A stretch of 64,000 nucleotides of DNA from Candidatus Fermentibacterota bacterium. GTDB lineage: Bacteria; Fermentibacterota; Fermentibacteria; Fermentibacterales; JCC-6. The DNA is taken from assembly GCA_963845085.1 (NCBI GenBank), contig CAWJQI010000001.1, forward strand, positions 160,001 to 224,000, given 5' to 3'. Position 1 is the stretch's first letter. The number at the start of each line of letters is the position of its first letter. Shown here piece by piece: positions 12,913-42,613 of this stretch. Below the pieces are notes generated by a model that saw only the letters and a program-made list of their open reading frames with translations, searched no databases and was not told the origin of the DNA. The translations under genes were made by a program, and so were the position numbers.

Positions 12913-12958
12913 ACCCCGTTCCTTTTCATATACTTGCATCGTTCGAGAAGGGGGGGGG

Positions 12959-13375
12959 ATGAAATCCCATACCGCATACCTGTGGTTCCAGACCGCCGGC
13001 AGGATGGAATTCATCAACATCACTGACCGTGTGGAAGAAGAGGTCGCCGCAAGCGGTATAAGGGAGGGGCTGTGCCTGGTGAACGCAATGCACATCACGT
13101 CCAGCGTCTTCATCAATGACGATGAGCAGGGGCTTCTGTCGGATTACGGGAGGTGGCTCGAGAAGCTGGCCCCCCACGAACCCGGTCTCTACCGGCACAA
13201 CCTGACCGGCGAGGACAATGCCGATGCCCATCACAAGAGGCAGGTGATGGGAAGAGAGGTCGTCGTCGCGGTGACGGCGGGCAGACTGGATTTCGGACCC
13301 TGGGAGCGGATCTTTTATGGTGAGTTTGACGGACGCCGGCGCAAAAGGGTGCTGGTGAAGATCATTGGAGAGTAG
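12959..13375 (+). CDS. yjbQ: YjbQ/UPF0047 family (secondary thiamine-phosphate synthase)
   Basis: [37 protein letters not shown]. Confidence 0.9.
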
Positions 13376-13384
13376 GAGACCGGA

Positions 13385-14086: not shown

Positions 14087-14355
14087 TTCCCGACTTTCCG
14101 CCCCCGTCGGTTCAGGCGGGGGCGGACTCCCTTCAAGCCCTGATCCTCGACGCATCTGTCGAATCGCTGGGACTTTTCTTTGCCGAGATAGGCCTGGAAG
14201 CTGCTCCGGACGAGGTCGTGCAATGGGAGACGGGCGATTTCATAGAGATCATCCAGGTCTACGGCGACTGCCGCTTCCCCGGGAAGGCGCCGGACAGTGT
14301 GAAGGTTTTCATGGGCGGTCTTCCCCTGCATCTGCTCGAGCCGGATCATCAGTGA
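14083..14355 (+). CDS. Hypothetical protein (90 aa)
   Basis: GTG start overlaps the SIMPL stop (GTGA); acidic protein-like composition. Confidence 0.45.
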   Translation: MIPDFPPPSVQAGADSLQALILDASVESLGLFFAEIGLEAAPDEVVQWETGDFIEIIQVYGDCRFPGKAPDSVKVFMGGLPLHLLEPDHQ

Positions 14356-17400: not shown

Positions 17401-17784
17401 CGGGGGTGGCTTGAGGAAAACTGGGGAAGCTGCACCGAAGGCGCCACACCGGGCAGGGCCAACAGCATCTGCGGACAGCAGGGAGGCCCGTTCCTTTCAG
17501 CCTGGCCCGAGGTCTTCTCCCCTGACGGGGACGGAGTAGACGACAGGATCGAAATAACCCTGAACGTACCCGGGCAGGGCTGTTCAGCCGAGGCAAGGGT
17601 GTACGACGTTACGGGGCGAGTCGTTGCCGAACTGTGGAACGGCCCCGTTCCGGGGGTGACCCTCGTGCTCTCCTGGGACGGCGCAGGCATGCCGGTCGGA
17701 CGCTACATCGTCTTCGCCTGCGCGAGGAACGGGAACAGCCTGCTGGAGGGTGCTCTTGTAAGGGTTCTTGCCCGGAGGCTCTAA
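14430..17784 (+). pseudogene. Lamin-tail-domain (4x) and CARDB-like surface protein with T9SS/FlgD-Ig-like C-terminal domain; apparent frameshift near 14538
   Basis: Four ITEV/INEI...EFIEL repeats; C-terminus PEVFSPDGDGVDD..VYDVTGRVV..WDG..GRYIV; the leader and the first repeat start (14430 frame) are out of frame with the rest (14533 frame). Confidence 0.8.
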
Positions 17785-18746
17785 GACCGCCCGAACCTTG
17801 CCTTGAGCCTCTGCAGCATGTCGGCGGTCATGGCGGGAAGGTCCCAGGCGGGCTTCCACCCCCACTCTTCCCTGGCAGCCCTGTCGTCGATGCTGCTGGG
17901 CCAGGAGTCGGCGATGGCCTGCCTGAAGTCCGGTTCGTAGGTGACCCTGAAGCCGGGGATGTGGCGCCGGATCTCGGCTGCAAGCTCTCCGGCCGTGAAG
18001 GAAAGGGCTCCCACATTGAAATCGCCGTGATGCACCAGACGGGAATGGTCCGCCTCGGCAAGGTCGATGGTTGCCTTTATGCAGTCCGGCATGTACATCA
18101 TGGGGAGGGATGTGTCCTCCCTCACGAAACAGGTGTACTCGCCCTCCTGCACGGCCTTGTAGAAGATATCGACCGCGAAGTCGGTGGTGCCTCCCCCCGG
18201 AGGCGTTTCGGAGCTGATGATTCCGGGATAGCGCAGACCCCTTGCGTCGATTCCGAAGCGTCTGACGTAGTAGTCGCCCAGAAGCTCTCCGCATACCTTT
18301 GTCACGCCGTACATCGTCCGGGGTCTCAGGACTGTTTCCTGCGGGGTGTTGTCCCTTGGGGTTTCGGGGCCGAACACAGCGATGCTGCTCGGGATTACAA
18401 CCGTGCCCAGCTTCAGCTCAACCGCCAAATTGAGGATGTTGAGCGTGCCCTCCATGTTCACGCGCCAGCAGAGGGAGGGGTTCTTCTCGCCGGTTGCGGA
18501 GAGGATTGCAGCGAGGTGGTAAACGGTATCGATCCCGTAGCGTTTCATGATGGCGCCCGCCATTGCCGGGTTCGTGACATCGAGGGTGTCGCAGGGACCG
18601 GTTTGTGCAAGCGGGCCTTCAATGGTTCTGACATCGGTGGCAACAACGTTGTCACTGCCGTAACGCTCACGAAGCGCCAGGGTGAGTTCGCTTCCGATCT
18701 GACCCATCGCGCCGGTGACGAGGACTTTCGGGGTGGACTTGGTCAT
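17781..18746 (-). CDS. tdh: L-threonine 3-dehydrogenase (SDR type)
   Basis: VTGAMGQIGSEL; HLAAILSATGE; PSSIAVFG; MYGVTK; PGGGTTDFAV; RQAIADSWP. Confidence 0.9.
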   Translation of the reverse strand: MTKSTPKVLVTGAMGQIGSELTLALRERYGSDNVVATDVRTIEGPLAQTGPCDTLDVTNPAMAGAIMKRYGIDTVYHLAAILSATGEKNPSLCWRVNMEGTLNILNLAVELKLGTVVIPSSIAVFGPETPRDNTPQETVLRPRTMYGVTKVCGELLGDYYVRRFGIDARGLRYPGIISSETPPGGGTTDFAVDIFYKAVQEGEYTCFVREDTSLPMMYMPDCIKATIDLAEADHSRLVHHGDFNVGALSFTAGELAAEIRRHIPGFRVTYEPDFRQAIADSWPSSIDDRAAREEWGWKPAWDLPAMTADMLQRLKARFGRS

Positions 18747-21733: not shown

Positions 21734-22947
21734 AACGAGTACTTGTCAAGCATGAACACGGTTGACGGGACCACCGGCAGTTCCTGCCTCACACGGTAAA
21801 GGAAGAACTCGTCGGGATCCCAGCCCAGGTTCCTGAAAACCTCTGAGAGCATCTCGCCGTAATCGGACACGAGCGGCGTGTATGTTCCATCGAGGCCGTT
21901 GCCCCGCAGTGAAATCGTAGTCTCAACGGGAAGCCGGTCGCACTTGAAACGGCGGGACAGAGGGCCGCTTCTGCCGTTGAAGTCGCCCATCACCTCGACC
22001 CTGGGCTCCTGTGCGAGCGGGAGGCTCTCATGAACGAACTGGTCGAACACAAGGTTCTGAACGGGTGTGTACACGCTTATGAAGACCTCGTGGCTTTTGT
22101 CCCCTGCGGGTATGTCCGAAATGCGGAAGACATTCCGTGTGACCGTCCCGGTTACCGAATCCATGAGGGTCGTGTTCCCGACCGGTCCCTCGACCAGCTC
22201 GTAGGTCGGGCCGCAGGCGCTGCGCGTGATGGCCTTCACCTCGGGAAGCGGATCGCTGCAGTAATTGAGAAGGAACGGCACGCTGCGTTCAAGGTCGGTT
22301 CCCGCCTCGGGATCGATCGGCTCGGCGGGCAGCGGCTCGCCCGTGGACGAGCTGAGGCACTCGCTGTGAACTATCCAGCGGGTTGATCGGCGATTCCTTC
22401 GTATCTTGTAAAGACCTTTCAGAACTGCGATGCTGAAGGCGCCGTCTTTTCCGGGGCCGAATATCCATGTGTTGAGCTGTGTTTCAGCCTGAAGGCCCAG
22501 CATGTGGCTCTGGTTCTGGTAGAGGTTCTTCTGCAGCGTCTTGTAAGCCTGCTGCCTGCCAGTGTCGCTGCTGGTCATGAGCATCAGGTCGAGTGACTGC
22601 CTGTCGCCGGAGTGAACGTCGACAAGACCGTAAAACTCCTCGACGGCCTTCATCGCATCATCAAGAAGGTCCTGCGGAACTCCCTTTGAACGGCAGCTCT
22701 TCAGGAACCTGCTGAAGGACTGCTTGCCTGGAATGAACTGGGCCGCAAAGAAGATGTCGTCCTCGTGGACGATTCTGAAGATCCTCCATCCCAGCTTCTT
22801 GTCAAGATTGAGGACCTGGTAGACATCGTGGGGGTTCTCGATGTACGCCGGGAGGGCGTCCATCAGAGCGCCGATACGCCGTTTCACCTCGAGCACGGTC
22901 TTTCTGACATCGTCTTCAAAACAACCGCTGAAGCTGTTCATTGCCAT
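21730..22947 (-). CDS. Hypothetical 405-aa cytoplasmic protein with possible N-terminal HTH
   Basis: Long ORF with host-like codon use; GGGAG SD; AT-rich upstream region. Confidence 0.75.
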   Translation of the reverse strand: MAMNSFSGCFEDDVRKTVLEVKRRIGALMDALPAYIENPHDVYQVLNLDKKLGWRIFRIVHEDDIFFAAQFIPGKQSFSRFLKSCRSKGVPQDLLDDAMKAVEEFYGLVDVHSGDRQSLDLMLMTSSDTGRQQAYKTLQKNLYQNQSHMLGLQAETQLNTWIFGPGKDGAFSIAVLKGLYKIRRNRRSTRWIVHSECLSSSTGEPLPAEPIDPEAGTDLERSVPFLLNYCSDPLPEVKAITRSACGPTYELVEGPVGNTTLMDSVTGTVTRNVFRISDIPAGDKSHEVFISVYTPVQNLVFDQFVHESLPLAQEPRVEVMGDFNGRSGPLSRRFKCDRLPVETTISLRGNGLDGTYTPLVSDYGEMLSEVFRNLGWDPDEFFLYRVRQELPVVPSTVFMLDKYSF

Positions 22948-27233: not shown

Positions 27234-27860
27234 ATGAAATTTACTGAGCTGATTGCGATCGTGGGAGATGAACCGGTTTTCAGCACCGGTCACCTTCTCG
27301 TCGGCGACGTTTCACCGCAGGGCATCCGCGCCCAGCTCTCCCGCTGGGCGAGCGAGGGGCGGCTGATCATGCTGCGCCGCGGGCTTTACACCTTCGCCCC
27401 CCCGTACCGCACGAAAACCCCGTCTCCCTTCGTGGTGGCGAACGCCCTGTCGCCCGGGTCCTATGTGAGCTGTCAGTCTGCGCTTTCCTGGCATGGCGTG
27501 ATCCCCGAGGGGGTGAAATCGGTCACTTCGGTCACCCCGGGCCGTCCGGGAATTTACACCAATCCACTTGGCACATTCATCCAGCGCCACATGAAACCCG
27601 ATCTGCTCTGGGGTTTCGAGAGCGCTCCGATGCCCTGGGGGGGAAGCGCCAGGATGGCCCTGCCGGAAAAGGCGCTTCTCGATCTGCTGTATCTGGAGCA
27701 CGGAGGCGGTTCACCGGAGTACATCAGACAACTCCGCCTTTCCGGGCAGGGTGGGCTTTCCGCAGCACTCCTTCGGCAGTTCGCAAGGCGATGGGGCAGC
27801 CCGGGCATGCTTGCGGCCGCCGAAAAAGTGATCGATGAGCTGGAATGGAGCGGGCAATGA
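27234..27860 (+). CDS. Type IV TA antitoxin, AbiEi-like
   Basis: QLSRWASEGRLIMLRRGLY; PGSYVSCQSALSWHGVIPE; ALPEKALLDLLYL. Confidence 0.88.
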   Translation: MKFTELIAIVGDEPVFSTGHLLVGDVSPQGIRAQLSRWASEGRLIMLRRGLYTFAPPYRTKTPSPFVVANALSPGSYVSCQSALSWHGVIPEGVKSVTSVTPGRPGIYTNPLGTFIQRHMKPDLLWGFESAPMPWGGSARMALPEKALLDLLYLEHGGGSPEYIRQLRLSGQGGLSAALLRQFARRWGSPGMLAAAEKVIDELEWSGQ

Positions 27861-28675
27861 AGGAGGAGCTTCGAAGAATCGTTGAGACCACTTCTTCCCT
27901 GACATCAGCGGTCTTTCCAGTGAGGGAGTACCTTCAGTCCAGGATACTCGGAATACTGCAGGACGCGGGGGCAATGATCCCCCTGGCATTCTGCGGCGGC
28001 ACGGCCCTTCGATTCCTGTACGGCATGCCAAGGTACAGCGAGGACCTGGACTTCTCACTGGAACGGGGGGAACCCGGCTTCTCCCTGCAGCCCGTTTTGC
28101 AGAGGATCACAGGTGTTCTTGCCAGGGAGGGCTATGCTGTTGATGCCGGAAGTAGCAGGGGGACCGGAACGGTTCACTCGGTGATGCTGCGCTTCCCGGG
28201 GCTGCTTTATGAACTTGCCCTTTCCCGGAGGAAGGAACAGGTCCTCTCCATCAGGATCGAAGTGGATACCCGGCCCCCTGAAGGGGCCGTTCTCGAGGTC
28301 AGCACCGTCCGTGTTTTCCAGCTTCTGCGTCTTCAACACCACGACCGTTCATCGCTGCTTGCGGGAAAGATCCATGCCGTCCTTACGCGCGAGTACGCTA
28401 AGGGACGCGACTTCTACGACCTTCTGTGGTACCTTTCCGGCAGGGAGTGGCCGGCTCCGAACATGGTGCTGCTTCGGAACGCCCTGACGCAGAGCGGTTG
28501 GCCCGGGGAACGGGTTTCCGGCATCGACCCCGGGGAAGAGCTTGAAACAAGGTTCCGCTCGCTCGACTGGGCAGCGGTGCGCCGGGACGTCCTCCCCTTT
28601 CTGGAGAAACCCGGGGAGGCTGACCTTCTGAACGAAGCCGACATGTGTGCCCTCATCAAGGGTCTGAACTGGTGA
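27857..28675 (+). CDS. Type IV TA toxin, AbiEii-like nucleotidyltransferase
   Basis: FCGGTALR..RYSEDLDFS; KIHA..KGRDFYDL; ATGA coupling to the antitoxin. Confidence 0.92.
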   Translation: MKEELRRIVETTSSLTSAVFPVREYLQSRILGILQDAGAMIPLAFCGGTALRFLYGMPRYSEDLDFSLERGEPGFSLQPVLQRITGVLAREGYAVDAGSSRGTGTVHSVMLRFPGLLYELALSRRKEQVLSIRIEVDTRPPEGAVLEVSTVRVFQLLRLQHHDRSSLLAGKIHAVLTREYAKGRDFYDLLWYLSGREWPAPNMVLLRNALTQSGWPGERVSGIDPGEELETRFRSLDWAAVRRDVLPFLEKPGEADLLNEADMCALIKGLNW

Positions 28676-28716
28676 GTGGCGGAGCCAGGCTTTTCTATCT
28701 TTCCTACACCATATCA

Positions 28717-28745
28717 TTGACAGTTATTGAATTATGTACTACATT
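28717..28745 (+). promoter_or_regulatory. Sigma-70-type promoter of the ATPase gene
   Basis: TTGACA-17 nt-TACATT; CGTAAC repeated twice downstream. Confidence 0.65.
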
Positions 28746-28782
28746 TCTTTCGTAACATCTTTCTCGTAACGAAGGGAATGAA

Positions 28783-29919
28783 ATGGCAAACCCTTTCTCA
28801 TACGGCGGCATCGTCAGCGACCGGCAGTTCTGCAACAGGGTCACCGAACTGCGGGAGCTTGCAAGGGCGGCGAAAAACGGCGAGAGGCTCTTCATCCACG
28901 GGGAGCGGCGGGTCGGCAAGACCTCGCTTCTGAAGTCCGTGATGGGCAGGATCAGGGAAGAAGGGGGCATCTGCTTCTACATCGACGTGTGGAAGTGTGT
29001 TGACGAGGCGGATTTTCGCAGGGTGTGCGCCTCGGCCCTCTCGGGTTACGCCCTTGAGAAGGGAAAGGGTGCCCTTGAAAAACTTGCCGGGCTTTTCTCG
29101 GGTGTCGCGCCCTCATTCGGCATCGACGAGTCGGGAAAGCCCACGGTCACCCTGGTGCGCGACCGAAGCCGGCCTGAAGGGCCCGATGTCGAGGAGATAC
29201 TTCGGGCGCCGGGCAGGATAAGCGCCATGGAACCGGGAAGACCGGTTCTTGTAGTCTTCGACGAGTTCCAGCAGATCAGGGAGATATCGGGTCTGAAGCT
29301 CGAAAAGGTCATTCGAAGCGTGATACAGGAGGAGACAGGTGTGGCCTGGTTCTTCTGCGGCAGCCGGGCCACGCTTCTTCGGGAGATGTTTTTGAAGAAG
29401 GGAAGCCCCCTCTTCAGGAGTTCGGGGCACTACCCGGTTGGCGCCATCGGCCTTGCCCACTGGCGCCCCTTCATCACCGGCGAGTTCGACCAGAGCGGCA
29501 AGAAGATCTCACCGGAAACGGTAAGGTCGCTTGTTCGGGCAACGGGGGGCCACCCCTTCTACACCCAGATGCTCTGCTCCACCCTCTGGGACATCTCCGG
29601 GCACACCGCCTCCGGGAATGATCTCGAAGCCGCTGTTTCACTTCTTCTGGACAGGGAGAGCGGCACTTACGCAACCCTGTGGAACTCACTTCCCGACCAG
29701 CCCAGGAAGATGCTTCGGGCCATTGCCCTCGAAGGCACGCTTCTGAAGCCAACATCGGGGGTCATTGTGAGGAAGTACGGGTTCTCATCGCCTTCCACTG
29801 CAAAGAGCGCCCTCCTCTACCTTCTGAAGCACGATCATGCCTCGCAGGATGAAAAGGGCGGCTACCATCTTTCCGACTGGTTCCTGGCGATGTGGTGCCT
29901 TCGCAACGTGGCGACGTAG
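28783..29919 (+). CDS. AAA+/STAND-like ATPase (ATPase_2 type) with C-terminal wHTH
   Basis: NPFSYG..FCNR..E; Walker A GERRVGKTS; Walker B VVFDEFQ; GGHPFY. Confidence 0.88.
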   Translation: MANPFSYGGIVSDRQFCNRVTELRELARAAKNGERLFIHGERRVGKTSLLKSVMGRIREEGGICFYIDVWKCVDEADFRRVCASALSGYALEKGKGALEKLAGLFSGVAPSFGIDESGKPTVTLVRDRSRPEGPDVEEILRAPGRISAMEPGRPVLVVFDEFQQIREISGLKLEKVIRSVIQEETGVAWFFCGSRATLLREMFLKKGSPLFRSSGHYPVGAIGLAHWRPFITGEFDQSGKKISPETVRSLVRATGGHPFYTQMLCSTLWDISGHTASGNDLEAAVSLLLDRESGTYATLWNSLPDQPRKMLRAIALEGTLLKPTSGVIVRKYGFSSPSTAKSALLYLLKHDHASQDEKGGYHLSDWFLAMWCLRNVAT

Positions 29920-29988
29920 GGGCTGGAGGATGGCGAGGCGCTCTGCTGCTGCCCTTTCGAAAATCCTCGTTACACCTATATTCACTGA

Positions 29989-30183
29989 ATGGAAAAAACC
30001 ATCATGGTTTTCACGAGTCCTGACGAACTGGACAGGTATGAGCGTTCCAGGCGCAGGGCCATGTCACCTGAGCAAAGGCTTCTGGAACTGGAATCCATCC
30101 GCAGCGAGGCAGGCAAATTCCTTTATGAGCATTCAGCCAGACTTCGAAGAGTTGTTACGGTCACTGGAAAAAAACGCAGTTGA
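29989..30183 (+). CDS. Small basic partner protein (putative antitoxin)
   Basis: MSPEQRL..LESIR..RLRRVV pattern; overlaps the downstream NTase gene. Confidence 0.65.
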   Translation: MEKTIMVFTSPDELDRYERSRRRAMSPEQRLLELESIRSEAGKFLYEHSARLRRVVTVTGKKRS

Positions 30184-30565
30184 GTACCTGATAGTCGGAG
30201 GCTATGCGGTTGCTCTGCACGGCTATCCCCGATACACGAAGGATATCGACCTCTTCTTCAGTCCAAATGAGGAGAATATTGACAGAATCATCGAAACCCT
30301 GATCGGGTTCGGATTTTCTTCCGATCAGCTCAACCGGGAGTTGTTCTCAACACCAGGAAACATCGTAACCTTCGGTGTTACACCCGTAAGGGTTGATTTT
30401 TTGAATGAGATTGATGGCGTTTCCTTTACAGACGCCTGGCCCAACAGGGTCCGAAGGGCATACGGAAACGTAACAGCAAATTTCATCGGCTTTGATGATC
30501 TTATCAAGAATAAATCTTCAACTGGTCGCAACCGCGACAAGCTGGACCTTGAGGAATTGTCCTGA
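30125..30565 (+). CDS. Nucleotidyltransferase (DUF6036-like)
   Basis: VEYLIVGGYAVALHGYPRYTKDID; LIKNK..GR.RD..DL; lower GC than its flanks. Confidence 0.85.
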   Translation: MSIQPDFEELLRSLEKNAVEYLIVGGYAVALHGYPRYTKDIDLFFSPNEENIDRIIETLIGFGFSSDQLNRELFSTPGNIVTFGVTPVRVDFLNEIDGVSFTDAWPNRVRRAYGNVTANFIGFDDLIKNKSSTGRNRDKLDLEELS

Positions 30566-30583: not shown

Positions 30584-31828
30584 CTATCCCGTTATCCCGT
30601 GCTTTTTCCCGACCTTCTCAAAGGCCTCGATGGCCCTGTCGAGGTGTTCGCGGGTGTGGGCGGCGGAGAGCTGCACCCTGATGCGGGACTGCCCGCGGGC
30701 GACCACAGGGTAGAAGAAACCGATGGCGTAGATCCCCTCTTCCAGAAGGTCGTCGGCGAACTGCTGCACCAGCGCTGCATCGTTTGGATACATGCCGAAG
30801 AGGATGGGAACGATGGCGGTCTCGCCGTCGATTATTGCGAAGCCGGCCTTCTTGATTCCACTGCGGAAGTAGAGGGCGTTTTCATGGACCCTGTCACGGT
30901 ATTCAGTGCTCGCCTCGATTATGTCGAGCACCTTGAGCGTTCCGCCCACGACCGGGGGAGCCATCGTGTTGCTGAATATGTACGGGCGCGAGGACTGCCT
31001 CAGCCATTCGATCAGCACCCTTCGCCCGGCGGTCACACCGCCGCTTGCGCCTCCGCAGGCTTTCCCGAAGGTTGTCGTGATGAGGTCGGCCCTTCCCATG
31101 ACACCGTGATGTTCAAGGCTGCCCCGGCCTGTCCTGCCGATGTAACCAGTGGCATGGCTGTCGTCGACCATGAGCAGAGCGTCGTGCCTGTCGCACATTT
31201 CAACCACCGCATCGAGCGGCGCGATGTCGCCGTTCATGCTGAAGACGCCGTCGGTCGCCACAAGCCTGTACTTGGCGTTCCTTACACTGTCGAGCATCAG
31301 GATGTCTTCAAGGCCGGGGAGTTCCCTCCCGTCGAAGTTCCGCAGACCGCGTCCGGTGTGGCAGTGGCTGTACACATGCCGCTGCGCCTTGCAAAGCCTT
31401 ACACCGTCTATGATCGAGGCATGGTTCAGCTGGTCTGCAATGATGGCGCACTCCTCGTCGAGGAATGGCTGGAAGACGCCTCCGTTGGCATCGAAGCAGG
31501 ACGAGTAAAGGATCGCGTCATCGGTTCCGAGGAACCGGGCGGTCCTTCTCTCCAGCTCCCTGTGGATGTCCTGCGTGCCGCAGATGAACCTGACGCTGGA
31601 GAGGCCGAAACCCCTTGTTCTCAGGGTCTCAGCGGCGGCTTCTATCACATCGGGATGGTTGGCGAGGCCGAGGTAGTTGTTCGCGCAGAAATTGAGGACC
31701 TTCCTCCCGCTGCCGACGGTAATCTCGGCGCCCTGCGGGGAGAGAATGACCCGTTCCCTCTTGAGCAGGCCTTCGCCCTCCCGGACTTTCATGAGTTTTG
31801 CAAGGTCGACCAGTATCCTGCTGGACAT
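30584..31828 (-). CDS. kbl: Glycine C-acetyltransferase (2-amino-3-ketobutyrate CoA ligase), canonical copy
   Basis: NFCANNYLGL; SVRFICGTQ; YSSCFDAN; LNHASIIDG; DDSHATG; TFGKACGG; RIRVQLSAAH. Confidence 0.92.
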   Translation of the reverse strand: MSSRILVDLAKLMKVREGEGLLKRERVILSPQGAEITVGSGRKVLNFCANNYLGLANHPDVIEAAAETLRTRGFGLSSVRFICGTQDIHRELERRTARFLGTDDAILYSSCFDANGGVFQPFLDEECAIIADQLNHASIIDGVRLCKAQRHVYSHCHTGRGLRNFDGRELPGLEDILMLDSVRNAKYRLVATDGVFSMNGDIAPLDAVVEMCDRHDALLMVDDSHATGYIGRTGRGSLEHHGVMGRADLITTTFGKACGGASGGVTAGRRVLIEWLRQSSRPYIFSNTMAPPVVGGTLKVLDIIEASTEYRDRVHENALYFRSGIKKAGFAIIDGETAIVPILFGMYPNDAALVQQFADDLLEEGIYAIGFFYPVVARGQSRIRVQLSAAHTREHLDRAIEAFEKVGKKHGITG

Positions 31829-31919
31829 CCGTTCCTCTTCCCGGGCCGGAAAACGGCAACCGTGGCTGTTTGTTGGAATGATTACGCCGGCGCTGCCCGG
31901 CACCCCGGAATATAACGAA

Positions 31920-31941
31920 GGGGGGCGCGGATGCGCCCCCC
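31920..31941 (-). terminator. GC-rich hairpin between the two kbl copies
   Basis: GGGGGGCGC-ATCC-GCGCCCCCC followed by TTCGTTATATT on the minus strand. Confidence 0.65.
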
Positions 31942-31960
31942 CGGTATCCCAAAGCCCTGG

Positions 31961-33208
31961 TTACATCCCGTACTTCTCTATAATCCCGTTCTTGTCCAGA
32001 CCGATGATCCCGTACTTCTTTCCGACCTTGTGGAAGGCCTCAACACATTTGTCTATGTGGTGGTCTTCGTGGGCCGCGGAAAGCTGCACCCTTATCCTCG
32101 CCGCCCCGGCCGGAACGACAGGGAAGAAGAAGCCGATCACGTAGATGCCCTCGGCGTACATGTCACGGGACATGTCGTTGGCAAGCTTGGCATTGAAGAG
32201 CATCACCGGAACGATCGGAGTCTCGCCCTCGCGAACGCAGAGCCCCGCTTCCGTGATGCCCTTTCGGAACCTCGCGGTGTTGCGCTCGAGCTTGTCACGG
32301 CGCTCGGTGCTTTTCGAAATGAGGTCGATGACGGTTATGGACGCGGCAACTATCGGTGGCGCCATGGAGTTGGAGAAGAGGTACGGCCTTGCCTTCTGCC
32401 GGCAGAGCTCCACTATCTCCTTCCTCCCCGAGACACAGCCGCCGGAGGCGCCGCCAAGCCCCTTGCCGAAGGTGGTGGTGATGATGTCGATCCTGTCCAT
32501 CACACCGAAATGCTCGTGGGTGCCCCGCCCTGTCCTGCCGATGAAGCCCGAGGCATGGGATTCGTCGACCAGGATCATGGCGTCGTACTTGTCGCAAAGA
32601 GCGCACATCTGGTCGAGGGGGGCGAGGTCGCCGTCCATCGAGAAGACGCCGTCGGTCACAACGAGCCTTGTGCGCTTGTCCTGGTGGAGGATCAGCTTGT
32701 TCTCGAGATGCTTCATGTCCATGTGCTTGAAGGTGTCGTACTCGGCCGAGCAGAGCCTGATGCCGTCAACCAGGGAAGCATGGATCAGCCTGTCCGCGAT
32801 GATCACATCCTGCTGGCTGAGAACGGCTTCGAACACGCCCGAGTTGGCGTCCATGCACGAAGGGAAAAGCAGGGTGGCCTCCATGCCGAGAAACGCCGAC
32901 ATCCTGTCCTGGAGCTCGCGGTGGATGTCCTGCGTGCCGCATATGAAACGGACCGAGCTCATGCCGTAGCCCCGCTCATCAAGACCCCTGTGGGCGGCGG
33001 CGACCACGTCAGGGTGGCTGGAGAGCCCGAGGTAGTTGTTGGCGCAGAAGTTGAGAACCCTCTTCTTTGGTGCGCCCTCGGGGAACTCGACAAGGATCTC
33101 GGCGTCCTGCGGTGAGCAGATGAACCGTTTCTCCTTGTAGAGACCCTTCTCCCTGATGGTGTCTATCTCGGAGCTGAACGTGCTCCTTGTTTTATCGCTG
33201 TATGCCAT
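31961..33208 (-). CDS. kbl: Kbl-like PLP alpha-oxoamine synthase, ACP-linked copy
   Basis: NFCANNYLGL; SVRFICGTQ; DESHASG; TFGKGLGG; variant motifs FPSCMDAN and LIHASLVDG. Confidence 0.88.
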   Translation of the reverse strand: MAYSDKTRSTFSSEIDTIREKGLYKEKRFICSPQDAEILVEFPEGAPKKRVLNFCANNYLGLSSHPDVVAAAHRGLDERGYGMSSVRFICGTQDIHRELQDRMSAFLGMEATLLFPSCMDANSGVFEAVLSQQDVIIADRLIHASLVDGIRLCSAEYDTFKHMDMKHLENKLILHQDKRTRLVVTDGVFSMDGDLAPLDQMCALCDKYDAMILVDESHASGFIGRTGRGTHEHFGVMDRIDIITTTFGKGLGGASGGCVSGRKEIVELCRQKARPYLFSNSMAPPIVAASITVIDLISKSTERRDKLERNTARFRKGITEAGLCVREGETPIVPVMLFNAKLANDMSRDMYAEGIYVIGFFFPVVPAGAARIRVQLSAAHEDHHIDKCVEAFHKVGKKYGIIGLDKNGIIEKYGM

Positions 33209-33221
33209 TCGTCAGCTCCTG

Positions 33222-33470
33222 TCAGCCCTGGTGTTTCTTGACCAGTTTGCAGATGGATGTGACGGTGTCAAAGGCTTCCGGTGTGGCCTCGTCGTCAGGA
33301 AGCTTTATGCTGTACTTCTTCTCGAGGAACACCTTCAGGGAGACCATCGAGAAACTGTCCACCAGCCCCGACGAGATCAGGGCGGTGTCGTACCCGACGT
33401 CCAGTTCGTCATCCTCGTCCACGTACTCGCCGATAACGTACTGCAGGATCACGTCTTTCATATCATCCAT
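33222..33470 (-). CDS. Acyl carrier protein
   Basis: 82 aa, acidic; LISSGLVDSFSMV phosphopantetheine-attachment motif. Confidence 0.92.
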   Translation of the reverse strand: MDDMKDVILQYVIGEYVDEDDELDVGYDTALISSGLVDSFSMVSLKVFLEKKYSIKLPDDEATPEAFDTVTSICKLVKKHQG

Positions 33471-33502
33471 TTCGTTTCCTTCCGTGAAAGTGCCGGGTTG
33501 TT

Positions 33503-35248
33503 TCAGTCATCCTCAAGGGTGGAAAGATCGCCGGTTTCCTCACCCCACTCCAGCGCTCTGAGGTAGCGCCGAAGTATCTTTCCGGAGCGGGTTTTTGGAA
33601 GCTTTTCAAGGTACTCAATCTCCTGCGGCATTGCCAGGGGAGAAAGCCTTTTCCTTATGAAGTTCATTATGGAGAGCTCAAGATCATCGTTGGGCTCGTA
33701 TCCGGGGTTCAGCGTCACGAAGGCCTTCACGACCTCCATGTTCACCTCGTCCGGCTTACCCACGGCGGCCGCTTCGGCTATGGCCTCATGCTCGATCAGT
33801 GCCGATTCCACCTCGAACGGACCAACGAGGTGTCCGCCGGTGTTTATAACGTCGTCGTCCCTGCCCACGAACCAGTAGTAGCCTTCCCGGTCGATGCTGG
33901 CCCGGTCGCCGGAGACGTACCAGAGGTTCTGGTTGGCCCTCAGCTCCTTCGGGGAGGCGTTCTCGGGGGCGCCGGGGAACTTGCTGCGGTACAGGTCGGG
34001 CCGCTGCCAGTATTCGCGGAACATCGAGGGCCAGCCCGGTCTGAAGGCGATGAGCCCCACCTGCCCCGGTTCGGTCACCGGCTGGTGGGTCTTGAGGTCG
34101 AGCACCGTGGCGGTGATCCCGGGGAACGGTTTGCCCATCGAGCCGGGCTTGATCTTCATGCCCGGGTAGTTGGTGATCATCATTGCACCGGTCTCGGTCT
34201 GCCAGAACGTGTCATGGAATGCGAGGCCGAATACCTTTTCACTCCAGATCACGGCTTCGGAGTTGAGGGGCTCACCCACCGAGGCGAGGTGTCTGAGCGT
34301 GGAGAGATCGAACTTCTTCACCGTTTCTTCGCCGTCCCTCATAAGCGAGCGGATGGCGGTGGGTGCGGAATACCAGACCGTCACCCTGTTGTCCTGGATG
34401 AACTGGTACCATCTGGCCGATGTGAAACCCGAGTCGAGGACGCACTGGGTGACGCCGAGGCTCCAGGGACCGATGATGCCGTAACTGGTTCCCGTCACCC
34501 AGCCCGGATCCGCGGTGCACCAGTAAACGTCATCCTCTTTCAGGTCGAGAACCCAGTGGGCGGTCAGGGACTGCCCCATGACCGATCCGTGAACGTGCTG
34601 CGCGCCTTTGGGCTGGCCTGTCGTGCCCGAAGTGTAGTGAAGCACGGAAGGCGTCTCGGGGCCCGATTTGTAGGCATCGAAATGCTCGATCCGCGGTGCG
34701 GTTTCAAAGTCGTAGAAGTGCTCGCCCTCGCGAAGCTTGTCGGGTGTGCCCTCCACGACTATCACGTGCCTGAGTTCAGGAAGGCTGTCCTGGATGGCCC
34801 TGACCTTCTTGACATGCTTCTGGGTTGTGAGGATCGCCTTCGTGCCCGCCCCGGCAAGCCTCACCGAGAGGGACTCGTCGCCGAATGCGCTGAAGAGCGG
34901 CTGGGCTATTGCACCGAGTTTAAGGACGCCGAGAAAGGAGATGTAAAGGGCCGGTATCTTGTCCATGAAAATGCATACACGGTCGCCGGGCACGATCCCG
35001 ACAGATTCGAGGAGATGGGCGAATCCGTTGGAATAGACCCTTATGTCATCAAAGGTGAAGGTCTTCTTCTTTCCCCCGAAGCCTTCCCATATCATTGCAG
35101 TCTTCCGGGCTCCGCCCCGGGCGCAGATCCTGTCGGAACAGATGGATCCGATGTTGAGAAGCTCGCCTTCCTTCCAGTCCAGAACCTTCTCGGCGATCTT
35201 CCAGTCGAAGTCCTTCAGTCTCTGTTCATAGCTTCCGATGTTGCTCAA
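33503..35248 (-). CDS. Acetate-activating adenylate-forming ligase (AcsA-like)
   Basis: YTSGTTGQPKG; WCTADPGWVTG; DTFWQTETG; PKTRSGKILRR; TTG start overlaps the acpS stop. Confidence 0.9.
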   Translation of the reverse strand: MSNIGSYEQRLKDFDWKIAEKVLDWKEGELLNIGSICSDRICARGGARKTAMIWEGFGGKKKTFTFDDIRVYSNGFAHLLESVGIVPGDRVCIFMDKIPALYISFLGVLKLGAIAQPLFSAFGDESLSVRLAGAGTKAILTTQKHVKKVRAIQDSLPELRHVIVVEGTPDKLREGEHFYDFETAPRIEHFDAYKSGPETPSVLHYTSGTTGQPKGAQHVHGSVMGQSLTAHWVLDLKEDDVYWCTADPGWVTGTSYGIIGPWSLGVTQCVLDSGFTSARWYQFIQDNRVTVWYSAPTAIRSLMRDGEETVKKFDLSTLRHLASVGEPLNSEAVIWSEKVFGLAFHDTFWQTETGAMMITNYPGMKIKPGSMGKPFPGITATVLDLKTHQPVTEPGQVGLIAFRPGWPSMFREYWQRPDLYRSKFPGAPENASPKELRANQNLWYVSGDRASIDREGYYWFVGRDDDVINTGGHLVGPFEVESALIEHEAIAEAAAVGKPDEVNMEVVKAFVTLNPGYEPNDDLELSIMNFIRKRLSPLAMPQEIEYLEKLPKTRSGKILRRYLRALEWGEETGDLSTLEDD

Positions 35249-35637
35249 GGCTTCCCCTTCCGTTCTTTGCTCCGTTCGAGGACCACCAGTGCCATTGCCG
35301 CAGTTCCGCAATGGCTTATGGAAACGCGCACCGCTTCGACACTTTTCCGGGCCGCCTTCAACGCAGCGTTCCCGTGAAGGCGGATTCCCACTTCGCCAGA
35401 TCCGCTGTTCCTGAGGACCTCGATCTGGTTCCACTCAAGCCCGCAGCCATGGCACCCAAGGGCCTTTATCACAGCTTCCTTCGCGGCAAACCTTCCCGCG
35501 TAGCTCTCATGACACCGGGCCCTTGAACCGGCGTACCTTGCCTCTTCGGGAAGGAACGCGCCCGATATGAAATCATCGGTCAGGCGTTCCCTGAACTCTG
35601 CGAGATCAACGATATGAATGCCCACCGCCATTATCAA
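35245..35637 (-). CDS. acpS: Holo-ACP synthase
   Basis: AVGIHIV; YAGRFAAKEAVIKAL; VSISH. Confidence 0.88.
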   Translation of the reverse strand: MIMAVGIHIVDLAEFRERLTDDFISGAFLPEEARYAGSRARCHESYAGRFAAKEAVIKALGCHGCGLEWNQIEVLRNSGSGEVGIRLHGNAALKAARKSVEAVRVSISHCGTAAMALVVLERSKERKGKP

Positions 35638-37900: not shown

Positions 37901-39132
37901 TTAGCTTCGCCTCCGGTGTAGGCCGCGAGCTCGGCTTTGACATCGGGATTCCCGGGGGCAAGGGCGGATGCCCTTTCAAGCGTCAAAACGGCTTCGGAGT
38001 GGCGTCCCGCTTCAGCCAGCGCCCTGCTGTAGGCTATCATTGTTCTTATCGAGGGGGCCTCGTCGGCCATGAACTTCTCGAGGAAGGAAATGGATTCACC
38101 CGTCCTTCCGCCGGCCAGAAGCAGGACACCGAGCCCCGAAACGGCCTGGTCAAGGTCGGGCTTTATTTCAAGGGCCTTCCTGAATGATGCCTCGGCCTCC
38201 GCTTCCTCACCGGAAGCAGCCTGCACGTGCGCGAGGTTGCACCAGATCTCGGGACGGTTGGCGTCGAGGTTGATGGCTTCCTTCAGGTCTTCCGAGGCGG
38301 CCGCGTACTCACCGAGGTTGTAGTGGTGCACGGCGCTTCTGTTGAGGGTGCTGATCCCCTCCTCCATGGCCTTCCCGGCAAACCGCTCGGTGACCTCCTG
38401 CATCTCAGTTAAAAACTGGATATTCCTTTCGAGCCCCTTCGAGAGCTCCTCTTTTACTGCTTCCACGGCCTTCTCGGTCTTCCTCCCGGCCTTGTTCATG
38501 TCCTCGAGAGCAAGTTCCGTGCTCTTCATCGCGGCTTCGGCCTTTTCAAGATGAGCTGCGGTTTCCGCCCGCACGGCTTCGGCCCTCTCCTCGAGGGACG
38601 ACTGCATGGCCTTCACGGCATCGGGAATGGAGCCGATGGCGTCGATGACGAAACCTGACGCCTCGTTGATGCCGGCTGTGCGCTGTTCTGCGGACTCCCG
38701 GATCGATGCGTTCACCTCGGAGAGAAGTGCCGCAAGCTTTTCGCCCAACCCGGCGAGCTGCCCGGAAAGATCAGCGGGGCCCTGCCCGGTCTCCCGGCCG
38801 GCGAGGCCTGCGGAAAGGGCGTCGATCTTGTCACCGATGCCGGTCGTCATCCTTTCGAGCGCTGAATCCAGCCTCCCAAGTGCCTCATCGAGCGAACCTT
38901 CGGCCGAAGGGGCCTCCCCGCGTGAACCCGAACCGGCGACTGCGGCTTCGAGCCTCCCGAACTGTGACTCGAAGAAGCCTTCGCCCGGAAGGGCGGGAGT
39001 CGAAGTCTTCGCCACCTCGTCCCGAACGGCATCGAGCTTCGCAGCAAGAACATCCATCTTCTCCGACATCTGCAGAATGGCCTGTCCCAGTCCCCTGAGC
39101 AGCTGTTCCACGGTCACCTGGTTATCTGCCAT
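37897..39132 (-). CDS. Coiled-coil protein with C-terminal TPRs
   Basis: Heptad-rich N-terminal two thirds; TPR consensus IWCNLA..AEASFRKALEIKP. Confidence 0.82.
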   Translation of the reverse strand: MADNQVTVEQLLRGLGQAILQMSEKMDVLAAKLDAVRDEVAKTSTPALPGEGFFESQFGRLEAAVAGSGSRGEAPSAEGSLDEALGRLDSALERMTTGIGDKIDALSAGLAGRETGQGPADLSGQLAGLGEKLAALLSEVNASIRESAEQRTAGINEASGFVIDAIGSIPDAVKAMQSSLEERAEAVRAETAAHLEKAEAAMKSTELALEDMNKAGRKTEKAVEAVKEELSKGLERNIQFLTEMQEVTERFAGKAMEEGISTLNRSAVHHYNLGEYAAASEDLKEAINLDANRPEIWCNLAHVQAASGEEAEAEASFRKALEIKPDLDQAVSGLGVLLLAGGRTGESISFLEKFMADEAPSIRTMIAYSRALAEAGRHSEAVLTLERASALAPGNPDVKAELAAYTGGEAN

Positions 39133-42100
39133 TGGTCATCCCCCGTCCCATATGCCTATTCCCCGTTTCAAGATCGCTTATGGTCCATGCTCGTTCGTGA
39201 TCAGCACCCATCGAGCTGAACAGGTCGGGGTGCCGTTCGCGCATGAACCTTTCCAGGGCCGCCTTCTCCATGGCAAGCCCCATCTGTGAAAACGCCCAGC
39301 GGAGAGTTTCAAGGTGTCCGGGGTCTCCGGACCGCCTGTAAAGGGCAAGCCATGCAGCGCATGCAGCCTCCCTTCTGCCGGAGGCCCACAGCGCCCGGCC
39401 CTCCTCCGAGGGAGCTCTCGAAAGTTTCGCCACGGAGTCCCGCAGCGCGGCGAGCAATGAATCATCGGCACGTGCTGCGCGGAACGCCTCGCCAGGCCTG
39501 CCGGCAGCGACCAGCAGGCGGATGAACCCCGTTGAGGCGGATCCGTCGGAACGCTCCAGCGCCCTGTCGACGAGCAGGGACGCCTTCTCCGAAAGCGCCG
39601 TTTCATCGGAATCGGCAAGCCTCATGGCGAAGGCCATGATGGTTTCGCTGTCAAGCGAGGACCTTGCAAGCGCTTTTGCGGCTTCAGCCGCTTCGGCCGG
39701 ATCGATGCGCCTCTCCGTCGGCAGAAACTCGGCCAGCCCCCGGACGATCAACTCGTCGGATCCGACCGACCTCCAGAAATCGCACCGCAGGGTTTCATCG
39801 GCAACGGCGTCGTTGAAAAGCTCCTCGTCGATTTCGGAGAAGCCCTTCCCGGCGAGTGCCACCCTTGCCCTGTGCGCGAGGGGCTGCATTCCCGACGCTG
39901 CGCAGGTTTGCTTCAGGGAGTGAACGGCCTTGAACATCCCGTCCACCGTCCAGCGGTCAAGACAGAGCCCGACTGAAGAGGCGGGGGGAGCGATGTCAAA
40001 GGGCGCCCCGGCCGAAGAGAACAATTCGGCGTCGCCTGAAGCTATCCCGATGAGCGCCCTGACCGATGGATCGGAAAGCCCAAGCATTGAGAACTGTTCG
40101 TAAAGGGAAGGATCGAGACGGAGCGCGGTGCATGCGGCTTCGGATACGTCGATCCCGGTCGAGTTCTTCACGGCGGTCGACGAGGCATAAAGAAGCAGTT
40201 CCGCGTTCCTGGTCCTCATGCCGTACCCGAGGGCCGCCTCGGCAAGTTCTGCGGCAGGGACCGGGCCCTTCTCAAGCGCCGTGTTGGCTGCCATTCTGAA
40301 GCCCCCCACGTCACCGGCGAAAAGGCGGGAGAGGGCAAGGAGCTTCCATATCTCCCAGGAGTCGACATGCTTCGAGGCTGTTTCCTCGAGAAACGCCCTG
40401 ACATCGTCCGATTCAATGCTTTTGGAAAGAACTCCCGCTGCGCCGGAAAGATCGCCGGAGTTCACGAGGGAACGGGCGAGCGCAAGCGTGGTCAGCCCCG
40501 AGGTTTCCTCCCCCGCCAGCGATTCGAGAACCTTCCTTGCAAGGGGGGCGGTTCCGCTGTCACGGGCGGCGGATGAAAGAAGCTCGACGGCCCTTGTTCG
40601 GTCACCCGTGGCTGCGGCCCTGCAGCCTTCCGCAAGGTCTGCCACGGTGCCTGCAGGTATGGCCACCGACTCCACGGAAACTGCCGCAGTGCCGAAACGT
40701 CCTGATTCGATGAAGTACTCGAGCCGGAACATCGCAGTGGAAAGGGGATCTCCGGTTTCGACACGTGCTGCGAGCGAATCCATCCATTCGGCGCGGGCCT
40801 CGGGTATGGAGAGCAGTGGAAGAAGCTTGGCGACCACGGCGCCCTGGCCGGCGGTGTTCAATGCCGGCATGAATGTTTCCGCGGCGGTTTTATGGAGCAG
40901 GCTCAAACGCATGTCTGCCACGAGGGAGGCCATCCTGACGGCCAGCGCGGGCTCCTTCGAGGCCTCGGCCATCGCAGGCGAGGCGGTGGCCGCGTCCTCC
41001 TGGGCTATCGCCGCCGCAGCCTGCACAAGGTACTCGGAAGGGGTTCCGGGTGTGAAACCTGAATCAAGGATCGCCCTTGCGTTCTCCCGGGCGAGCCCGT
41101 TGTCGAAAACCTCCAGAAGCCCCTCCTCCGACACCTTTTCCCCGCGGAGCAGGAGGGCGAGCCAGTCGGATGCCGTTGCCTTCGAATCTCCGATGCCGCC
41201 GGTGATGGATGCCCTGAACCTGCGGAGTCTCGGAAATCTGTCCATCAGGGGCGAAAGCCTGGAAAGAACGACCGCCATGTCGGAACGGGATTTCAGGTCC
41301 TTCCGCGTTGCAAGGTGCTGCATTGCGGCACCCGCCTCGCCCTCCCTGCCGACTATCATCTTGTGGACCGCAAGCAGGATCAGCACCGACGCATTTGTCT
41401 TCTCGCGTTGAAGAAGCTTCTGGATCTGGTTGAACACCCAGTCCGGGTCCTGCTCGAGCGAGTAGAGAATGATCTGGACAGCCTCTTCGACCGAGCCCTT
41501 CTCCACAAGGAACTCCCCGAGTTTCCTTGAAACCTTTCCATCGCGGTCCATCCCCTTCTCGATAACGCTTCTGCAGACTTCCGTCACAGGCGCCTGATCG
41601 AGATCGGGGCACTCGAACACCTTCGCCAGGGACTCCATGCCCTGGGTCGCCTCGCCTCTTGAGATCCTGAGGCGTGCCTGAAGCAGATGCGCCCGTGCGC
41701 TTCCCGGCGCCACCAGGACGATCCCGGTCGCAGCCTGTTCAAGAAGGGAGGCGTCCACCTCGCGGTCAAGCATGCCCTCGAGAACAGCGCACGCGTCGTT
41801 GATGCGGCCCGCTGCAGCCATGAGCCTGGCAAGCGCTATGGAGGCTTTTCCGGAGGTGTCCGACGGTATGAGGCTTTTCTCAATGATGCCGATCGCCTTC
41901 TCGATAACCTCGCGGTCGGCCTGAAGCAGGGTGGTAAGCTCGGCCACGGCGCGTTCGGTGTCGGAAAGGGCCACCAGTATGCGAATCCGCCCAAGATTGA
42001 CTTCCATGTCGGTGCCGCCGGTGCGGTTGGCGATCCATCCGCTGAGCCTTGAGAGGCTCTCGTCGGGGAACGACGACCGTTCCGCGGCGTTCACCAGAAC

Positions 42101-42613
42101 ATCCACGGCTTCGGCGGGTCTTCCCTTCCTGAAAAGCACCACCGCCATCGCAAGGCATGGCTCGGTGTTCTTCAGCTCCTCACCGGGAAACTTCGCCTGG
42201 GACTGGTAGGCGCTTTCTATTGAATCAACGAACCTTGACTCGGTGATCCTGTCAACCGTGGTGAGCAGCTCAAGCATCCCGTTGTAGTCCTTGCTGCGAA
42301 GCCTGAGCCTCCAGAGGACTTTCAGCAACTCGGTCGATCGTGCGAACTGCCCGAGTTTTTCCTCGAGCATCTTGACGATGCCGGCGCGCAGATCGGAATG
42401 GGCTTTGATGATTCGCTCGGATAGCCTCGCCGCGAGGTCGGGATGACCGATGTCCATCAGGAAGGGCAGCACCTGTCTGGCCACTTCCTTCTCCTCAAGG
42501 ATGCCTTCTATTTCCTCTTCAATGAGTACGGCCGCCTGATCGACCATGTCATCCGCGGCCATGTCCCGGGCTTTTTTCAGGATTCTCTGCGATTTTGATT
42601 TAAAAAGCGCCAT
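39122..42613 (-). CDS. Giant (1163 aa) alpha-solenoid/TPR-like hypothetical protein
   Basis: Ala/Leu-rich helical repeats throughout; no signal peptide; overlaps the downstream gene. Confidence 0.8.
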   Translation of the reverse strand: MALFKSKSQRILKKARDMAADDMVDQAAVLIEEEIEGILEEKEVARQVLPFLMDIGHPDLAARLSERIIKAHSDLRAGIVKMLEEKLGQFARSTELLKVLWRLRLRSKDYNGMLELLTTVDRITESRFVDSIESAYQSQAKFPGEELKNTEPCLAMAVVLFRKGRPAEAVDVLVNAAERSSFPDESLSRLSGWIANRTGGTDMEVNLGRIRILVALSDTERAVAELTTLLQADREVIEKAIGIIEKSLIPSDTSGKASIALARLMAAAGRINDACAVLEGMLDREVDASLLEQAATGIVLVAPGSARAHLLQARLRISRGEATQGMESLAKVFECPDLDQAPVTEVCRSVIEKGMDRDGKVSRKLGEFLVEKGSVEEAVQIILYSLEQDPDWVFNQIQKLLQREKTNASVLILLAVHKMIVGREGEAGAAMQHLATRKDLKSRSDMAVVLSRLSPLMDRFPRLRRFRASITGGIGDSKATASDWLALLLRGEKVSEEGLLEVFDNGLARENARAILDSGFTPGTPSEYLVQAAAAIAQEDAATASPAMAEASKEPALAVRMASLVADMRLSLLHKTAAETFMPALNTAGQGAVVAKLLPLLSIPEARAEWMDSLAARVETGDPLSTAMFRLEYFIESGRFGTAAVSVESVAIPAGTVADLAEGCRAAATGDRTRAVELLSSAARDSGTAPLARKVLESLAGEETSGLTTLALARSLVNSGDLSGAAGVLSKSIESDDVRAFLEETASKHVDSWEIWKLLALSRLFAGDVGGFRMAANTALEKGPVPAAELAEAALGYGMRTRNAELLLYASSTAVKNSTGIDVSEAACTALRLDPSLYEQFSMLGLSDPSVRALIGIASGDAELFSSAGAPFDIAPPASSVGLCLDRWTVDGMFKAVHSLKQTCAASGMQPLAHRARVALAGKGFSEIDEELFNDAVADETLRCDFWRSVGSDELIVRGLAEFLPTERRIDPAEAAEAAKALARSSLDSETIMAFAMRLADSDETALSEKASLLVDRALERSDGSASTGFIRLLVAAGRPGEAFRAARADDSLLAALRDSVAKLSRAPSEEGRALWASGRREAACAAWLALYRRSGDPGHLETLRWAFSQMGLAMEKAALERFMRERHPDLFSSMGADHERAWTISDLETGNRHMGRGMTNGR

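Follow-up and report, generated by a model that had tools for sequence, protein, structure and literature searches.

We analysed a stretch of 64,000 nt (the window) from a Candidatus Fermentibacterota genome (contig CAWJQI010000001.1, positions 160,001 to 224,000), which carries an operon for an AcpS-type phosphopantetheinyl transferase, an acetate ligase, an acyl carrier protein (ACP) as well as a paralog of glycine C-acetyltransferase (Kbl). The source genome (G000) is 88% complete. The relevant genes and features are:

35245..35637, minus strand: acpS, AcpS-type phosphopantetheinyl transferase (PF01648)
33503..35248, minus strand: ligase, short AcsA-type AMP-forming acetate ligase of 581 aa with the ACP as predicted substrate (PRK04319, 727.4 bits)
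33222..33470, minus strand: ACP, stand-alone acidic carrier protein of 82 aa with Ser39
31961..33208, minus strand: KblA, glycine C-acetyltransferase paralog with a remodelled coenzyme A (CoA)-adenosyl site (R140, I142, Y157, D158), over the TIGR01822 cut-off
31919..31942, minus strand: hairpin with a 10-bp GC-rich stem and a T-rich tail, at which the four-gene unit likely ends
30584..31828, minus strand: KblB, ordinary CoA-type Kbl, placed in the tree next to the only Kbl that cassette-free relatives have
17781..18746, minus strand: L-threonine 3-dehydrogenase (Tdh) of the short-chain dehydrogenase/reductase (SDR) type, outside the operon, likely source or sink of 2-amino-3-ketobutyrate (AKB)

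The original prediction described four packed, co-directional genes with a 4-nt overlap of acpS and ligase followed by gaps of 32 and 13 nt. All four open reading frames (ORFs) were found in this arrangement, but the ordinary kbl at 30584-31828 had been overlooked. It lies 132 nt downstream of kblA behind the terminator-like hairpin, and the two proteins are 53% identical. KblB contains a 12-residue insertion after the CoA-site strand, which it shares with the Kbl of the cassette-free relative G005. The ligase starts with TTG, in the 4-nt overlap with the acpS stop; the start of a longer ligase ORF of 643 aa is less likely. The hairpin is suggestive as a terminator because of its position and stem and not because of the site count, as the scan gave 5 terminator-like sites where 5.6 were expected. 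A similar hairpin occurs 3' of kblA in L021 and many other loci (without a shuffle control), and a promoter scan of the locus gave nothing above chance. The source genome possesses a second AcpS gene (G000:C2:19367) and a separate fatty-acid ACP (G000:C5:802261-802500), and the acpS of the operon is likely dedicated to the cassette ACP.

The ACP does stand alone, and its Ser39 lies in a DSF motif that is invariant in 39 of 39 aligned members. Conservation across phyla is about 60% or more. The predicted structure has a carrier-protein fold (pLDDT 87) with PigG, PltL and DltC as best matches, and the protein contains 18 acidic and 8 basic residues. The protein scores below the cut-off of every ACP family; the best NCBIfam match, ACP_for_OlsHI, was rejected (51.6 against a cut-off of 130).

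Both acetate-pocket motifs claimed for the ligase, WCTADPGW and DTFWQ, are present. The score against the AcsA model PRK04319 falls just short of the cut-off of 729 bits, and the closest solved structure is the Bacillus AcsA that belongs to this model (9g79, E 6e-160). The acetate pocket (V251/T252/V324/W349) and K557, equivalent to V310/T311/V386/W414 and K609, are kept in 72 of 72 cassette ligases, as is R584. These residues presumably have the acetate-pocket and K609 roles of their equivalents, and the same assumption applies to R526 in motif A8. The cassette ligase differs from Bacillus AcsA by FSAFG in place of FEAFM, by HL in place of ER at positions 525-526, by a basic CoA-loop and by the linkage to an ACP. 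At R526 (E. coli numbering) all 72 cassette ligases have Leu, where Bacillales AcsA and E. coli Acs have Arg. Basic patches, which would face the acidic ACP, mark the CoA-nucleotide region (K148 and R150 in 72 of 72; RK[K/R]LS), in the part equivalent to R191/R194 of Salmonella Acs, which bind CoA according to the accessible text of PMC13404658.

The closest relatives of the ligase on plasmids share 40-48% identity with it. Of 43 such relatives 12 were inspected: seven belong to acsA-pdhA-pdhB-pdhC-ACP operons, one is a lone haloarchaeal gene, and the remaining four are AcsA of Bacillales, none of which has an ACP nearby (4 of 4). Thus, all seven bacterial relatives from outside the Bacillales that were inspected on plasmids are encoded in operons with pyruvate dehydrogenase (PDH) genes and an ACP. 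These operons (L114-L117, L121, L122 and L222, on plasmids of seven genera) contain no E3 gene, and several of them are located near Usp, BON, Hsp20 or hydrogenase-maturation genes. In two trees, built with 16 and with 10 of the 72 cassette ligases, the ACP-linked ligases form two sister groups with moderate support (91/88 and 88.6/92), and FSAFG and R526L/M are common to both groups. Since the sister groups have these traits in common, ligase and private ACP look like a stable unit with varied acetyl-transfer partners.

KblA is a Kbl by score (TIGR01822: 566.7, cut-off 493; PRK06939: 566.9, cut-off 460) and stays below the cut-offs of the serine palmitoyltransferase (SPT) models (254-326 bits against 500-670). 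However, it forms a clade of its own (support 0.999, FastTree, 25 rows), in which KblB is not included, as KblB joins the Kbl of cassette-free genomes. We compared 76 KblA sequences with 30 ordinary Kbls and found all checked catalytic and pocket residues in both. V79, F81, H136, S185, D210, H213, K244 and R368 (E. coli numbering) as well as the motifs SSVRFI and RPY-FSN are present in 76 of 76 KblA proteins; we take these residues to serve in PLP binding, in catalysis and in the glycine/acetyl pocket. The differences cluster round His136: F112M, A133R, N135V/I, a variable K147, loss of R150, Y151D and E160H. A133R, N135V/I and Y151D are each found in all 76 KblA proteins. N135 is present in none of them and K147 in 23, whereas both are invariant in the 30 ordinary Kbls. 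Kbl position 150 aligns without gaps to Lys156 of the R. capsulatus 5-aminolevulinate synthase (ALAS; alignment with 2bwn), which, as stated in the accessible portion of PMC4615937, lines the adenosyl pocket for succinyl-CoA; Lys or Arg occupies this position in 2 of 76 KblA proteins and in 30 of 30 ordinary Kbls. Judged by the basic residue at the ALAS K156 position, N135 and K147, KblA does not have an ordinary CoA-adenosyl site. A rebuilt CoA-nucleotide site next to conserved chemistry is what a switch to a protein carrier would predict.

The ACP search returned 3108 protein clusters. The genome scan confirmed 561 loci in 27 of the 64 parts of the collection; the best 80 of them were kept, and the set therefore leans to near relatives. 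Within these 80 loci KblA is encoded in 77 and the ligase in 75, which is far beyond chance, so the expected conservation of the gene linkage holds and the four-gene unit is a conserved operon. An acpS gene occurs in 46 loci, an ordinary kbl in 27, a Tdh gene in 13 (SDR type) or 2 (Zn type), a monocarboxylate-transporter gene in 19 (SatP 11, ActP 5, MFS 4) and a gene for a Pat-like ACD-GNAT protein in 10. Many of the missing genes are due to contig ends, and in the two carriers G085 and G094 kblA is not adjacent but located elsewhere in the genome. A further 80 metagenome loci, collected with an acidobacterial ACP as query, have the same core genes; in eight of them a Zn Tdh-like gene lies upstream (two of these look like duplicates), and in nine an acylating aldehyde dehydrogenase is encoded nearby. 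An SDR-type Tdh gene is found directly upstream of the cassette in L078 and L093, and a Zn-type gene, directly upstream and in the same orientation, in L080, L169, L187, L189, L192 and L212 (four of these six score over an NCBIfam Tdh cut-off). Tdh genes of two unrelated types and genes for three families of monocarboxylate transporters are recurrent neighbours of the cassette.

The loci span more than ten lineages, among them Bacteroidales, Acidobacteriota, Zixiibacteriota, Delongbacteria, Aminicenantes, Calditrichaeota, Chloroflexota, Gemmatimonadota, Krumholzibacteriia, Ignavibacteriales, Latescibacterota and Clostridia. Among 70 Fermentibacterota genomes the ACP occurs in 53 and the ligase in 56, and in one family of the phylum (f2) both are missing together (0 of 9 each); an SDR-type Tdh is present in 8 of these 9 cassette-free genomes. 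A profile search of cluster representatives, done without neighbourhood context, gave 253 matches at E 1e-10. No cassette-type ACP or KblA was found on plasmids, where all matches had less than 60% identity.

Because of the linkage, the loss of Lys/Arg at the CoA site and the recurrence of Tdh and transporter genes, acetyl transfer among threonine, glycine and acetate is very likely carrier-bound in these organisms, with the ACP replacing CoA. The original prediction of a dedicated carrier with acetyl and glycine specificity is thereby supported by linkage, pockets, the remodelled CoA site and the upstream Tdh genes of other genomes, while its synthesis direction is weakened. That ligase and KblA are ordinary CoA enzymes of the Acs and Kbl kind, with an incidental or regulatory ACP, is quite improbable. 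In its favour, KblA scores over the TIGR01822 cut-off, the ligase comes close to that of PRK04319 and is the only Acs-like gene found in the source genome, and R584 of the ligase never varies. However, this does not fit the conservation of the ACP across phyla with its invariant DSF motif, the acpS gene in 46 of 80 loci, the clade-specific loss of basic CoA-site residues in KblA and the joint absence of ligase and ACP from family f2.

It is also rather improbable that acetyl-ACP, formed from acetate and threonine, is the actual product and is consumed by a distant third enzyme such as an MBOAT O-acetyltransferase in a Dlt-like manner. The ACP fold does resemble the DltC and PigG carriers, and four of five tested carriers possess an MBOAT, G109 being the one without a match. 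However, the MBOAT gene of the source genome is unlinked and located on another contig, it matched none of 170 loci when used as the single query at E 1e-6, so that no linkage was found, and no other consumer recurs in the neighbourhood clusters. This MBOAT gene (G000:C4:562567-564000) is a single copy amid apparent surface-polysaccharide genes, with no related ACP found nearby.

AKB decarboxylates spontaneously, and some carriers have no identified Tdh. Both points would suit aminoacetone, a longer aminoketone or a lipid base as the product, which we nevertheless consider most improbable, as both enzymes keep small acetyl pockets and no tailoring or lipid genes recur. A lipid is unlikely because of these pockets and because the source genome has a separate SPT-like locus. 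The latter (L215, G000:C5:163441-166799) encodes an SPT-like oxoamine synthase (SerpalmtaseCFB 473 bits, cut-off 640), a GNAT protein and a divergent NAD-dependent epimerase, and looks like a ceramide locus in Fermentibacterota.

With regard to direction, we favour threonine cleavage with ATP formation over threonine synthesis and give it a probability of roughly 0.4. In this scheme, AcpS would arm Ser39 of the ACP and Tdh would oxidise threonine to AKB. The ORF at 17781-18746 is an SDR-type Tdh, as had been assumed, with its best solved-structure matches reaching E 1e-107 (to 2yy7). KblA would split AKB into glycine and acetyl-ACP, KblB would divert a part of the AKB to acetyl-CoA, and the ligase would run in reverse, converting acetyl-ACP, AMP and pyrophosphate (PPi) to acetate and ATP. 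The acetate would exit, in some genomes via the co-encoded SatP. The private carrier would allow an acetyl/thiol ratio above that of the CoA pool, which is kept low by Pta-AckA, and since the ratio is freed from this pool, such a carrier would be useful in either direction.

Cleavage is supported by the acetyl donor that is the partner in the acsA-pdhABC-ACP sister operon, by the fact that KblA and KblB would share AKB without a futile cycle, and by the frequent coexistence of threonine synthase (ThrC) with the cassette. Moreover, a transporter beside the cassette in cells with AckA, which is present in the source genome and in 39 of 50 carriers, suggests a high flux. The source genome encodes two membrane pyrophosphatases (PPases) and has no match to soluble PPases of family I or II. 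The same PPase pattern is reported for Syntrophus, where the formation of ATP from AMP and PPi is ascribed to Acs1 (accessible part of PMC4992975).

Several observations weigh against threonine cleavage. AckA in 39 of 50 carriers is a likely internal source of acetate, which tempers the transporter argument, and it already makes ATP from acetyl-CoA. The PPi/PPase pattern does not discriminate carriers: 14 of 50 carriers possess a soluble PPase, including both carriers of the control family, membrane PPases are found in 24 of 26 genomes of the control family versus 46 of 50 carriers, and the cassette-free G005 has a membrane PPase and no PF00719 match as well. PPase and AckA profiles separate carriers from the control family, which is that of G080, only by lineage, and in this family only 2 of 27 genomes carry the ACP, too few for a matched test. 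Tdh was strongly identified as SDR type in 23 of 50 carriers, as Zn type over the cut-off in 10 and near it in 2, but not clearly in the other 15 (7 weak SDR matches, 8 none). Support for the ligase groups as sisters lies below the starred threshold of the tool, with only 7 outgroup rows, and the ACP families of the two cassettes are barely alike (hhalign probability 19%). Homoserine dehydrogenase (Hom) is found in none of the 70 genomes of the phylum and ThrC in none of the eight of genus g1, and there synthesis would be useful. Finally, threonine cleavage would give only a modest thermodynamic push, and ActP-type symporters and Pat-like ACD-GNAT proteins are typical neighbours of an acetate-consuming Acs.

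The opposite direction, as originally predicted, would have ATP load acetate on the ACP, KblA condense it with glycine and Tdh reduce the AKB to threonine, with the private carrier supplying a push that the CoA pool cannot give. We regard it as the less likely direction, although several observations suit it. In addition to the absence of Hom from 70 of 70 phylum genomes, Hom is missing in 31 of 50 other carriers (genomes whose completeness is not given), the source genome at its 88% completeness has neither ThrC nor Hom, ActP transporters of the uptake type are among the neighbours, Tdh adjoins the cassette, and the architecture matches that of AasR-AcpR-SPT as far as the accessible text of PMC9386255 describes it. 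The accessible text of the Hyd24-12 genome paper (PMC5030696) lists threonine among the synthesised amino acids, reports no amino-acid catabolism and does not mention this operon. With respect to the chemistry, the E. coli Kbl/Tdh pair can reportedly run toward threonine, as Marcus and Dekker are said to have found in 1993.

However, the lack of threonine-synthesis genes in carriers (thrB and thrC in the original prediction, Hom and ThrC in our searches) does not hold in general, although the source genome has neither Hom nor ThrC. ThrC is over the cut-off in 27 of 53 phylum carriers, and Hom together with a ThrC-family match over the cut-off occurs in 15 of 50 carriers of other lineages, although TIGR00260 is a broad model. 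In G045 a class II ThrC gene lies beside a TIGR02535 gene, and in the single-contig genome G080 Hom adjoins thrC. Furthermore, KblB would drain AKB and thus undo the work of KblA, and the cassette-free family f2 is also without Hom and ThrC. The G045 genes form one run (L217:2258-7517) for an uncharacterised 433-aa protein, an aminotransferase, the class II ThrC and the TIGR02535 'proposed homoserine kinase', and this run, in a phylum without homoserine dehydrogenase (0 of 70), possibly represents another route to homoserine.

In 27 of 80 loci kblA is accompanied by an ordinary kbl, which could also point to an acetate-assimilation relay, in which acetate would be converted to acetyl-ACP, then by KblA to AKB and then by KblB to acetyl-CoA and glycine. 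The missing canonical Acs in 69 of 70 phylum genomes and the nearby transporters would agree with it. Nevertheless, it has very little probability, as it is a roundabout substitute for one enzyme, AckA is widespread in the carriers, and a hairpin lies between kblA and kblB.

The cassette resembles several known systems. In Caulobacter and further Rhodobacteria, the AasR-AcpR-SPT module (PMC9386255, accessible text) also links an adenylating ligase, a dedicated ACP and an alpha-oxoamine synthase, with a private carrier in place of CoA, which for the cassette is a prediction from sequence. In contrast, the ligase here is of the Acs type with an acetate pocket, the synthase is a Kbl for glycine and acetyl, Tdh and acetate transporters are linked instead of lipid genes, and the direction may be reversed. 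An assignment as SPT with a long-chain ligase failed, the ligase best matching acetate-CoA ligase. With the Tdh-Kbl cleavage pathway (E. coli Kbl, 1fc4; SDR Tdh, 2yy7) the cassette shares the checked catalytic and substrate-pocket residues and the Tdh linkage; however, KblA branches separately, its CoA-adenosyl site is altered and it travels with ACP, AcpS and ligase, and the source genome keeps an ordinary Kbl beside it. The acetate:ACP ligases MadH and CitC likewise acetylate a private carrier at the expense of ATP and release AMP and PPi. In those systems the carrier holds phosphoribosyl-dephospho-CoA, with an acetyl group that is catalytic, whereas the cassette encodes an AcpS-type phosphopantetheinyl transferase.

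Acs1 of Syntrophus aciditrophicus is likewise AMP-forming, with a proposed ATP synthesis from AMP and PPi and with membrane PPases in the host (accessible parts of PMC4992975 and PMC13404658). Acs1 is of the long Acs type and acts on acetyl-CoA in a host without AckA, whereas the cassette ligase is of the short AcsA type, linked to an ACP, and its hosts mostly possess AckA. The transfer of the Syntrophus bias residues G196/T197, taken from the accessible part of PMC13404658, was rejected, as the ligase loop differs in length.

The acsA-pdhA-pdhB-pdhC-ACP operon shares with the cassette a sister ligase group (R526L, FSAFG), a dedicated ACP and an acetyl-transferring partner. In that operon, however, PDH E1/E2 is the partner, the ACP family has only a remote similarity to that of the cassette, and aerobes, with stress genes in the vicinity, are frequent hosts. 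It is possible, although we propose it tentatively, that one ligase lineage represents a class of private-carrier modules for substrate-level phosphorylation, with either Tdh/KblA or pyruvate dehydrogenase as acetyl donor. The donor would bring the ACP to a charge far higher than that of the CoA pool, and the ligase would use acetyl-ACP together with AMP and waste pyrophosphate to make ATP and acetate. If so, hundreds of anaerobic and hypoxia-adapted species would gain ATP by a route that has not been described.

We found no published description of the Kbl or the PDH cassette, in a search that left most subscription journals and supplements outside, and the accessible text of PMC13688921 and bioRxiv 2022.09.28.509898 holds nothing further on the cassette. 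New in this study are the mapping of the CoA site, the profiles for Hom, ThrC, AckA and PPase and the finding that both ligase groups are sisters. Annotation pipelines assign the housekeeping labels acs, acpP, acpS and kbl, and a conserved branch of central metabolism is therefore hidden. This branch belongs to digester and sediment bacteria, and uncultured anaerobes of many phyla carry the cassette. Pathways for lipids, polyketides and cell walls are known to use carrier-protein chemistry, but threonine and acetate metabolism is not known to do so. If the operon is catabolic, it would be a new way of making ATP from AMP and pyrophosphate; if it is anabolic, an ATP-driven route to threonine from acetate and glycine. 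In either direction it would provide a small channel for acetyl groups that does not depend on the CoA pool.

Several loci deserve separate mention. In the acidobacterial-type loci L169 (5159-7760), L177, L057, L067 and L164 genes for an acylating aldehyde dehydrogenase and a CoA-transferase-GNAT fusion adjoin the cassette, and in L169 and L177 the aldehyde dehydrogenase match begins within about 10 nt of the kblA end on the same strand. In L054, L059, L062, L072, L094 and L097 kblA and kblB are followed by genes for a 1250-aa Ser/Thr kinase, hsp20 and lon. The kblA gene of L041 (10254-12701; single-contig genome G074) is frameshifted near residue 355 and runs into isocitrate dehydrogenase, which is probably an assembly error. 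Long ORFs that end in the ACP (L066, L070, L071, L100) run over the ligase in a different frame and were regarded as artefacts of ORF calling, and the PALP matches beside the cassette in genus g8 were rejected as threonine dehydratase, the one checked being a cysteine synthase.

Within the window, the region 27234-30565 encodes the pair AbiEi/AbiEii, an archaeal-type ATPase and a nucleotidyltransferase (DUF2204) with a small ORF upstream, and looks like a defence- or mobile-like island that converges on kblB. Long ORFs with little or no family match are located at 14533-17784 (with a lamin-tail domain), 12926-14155, 21730-22947 and 39122-42613 (with TPR).

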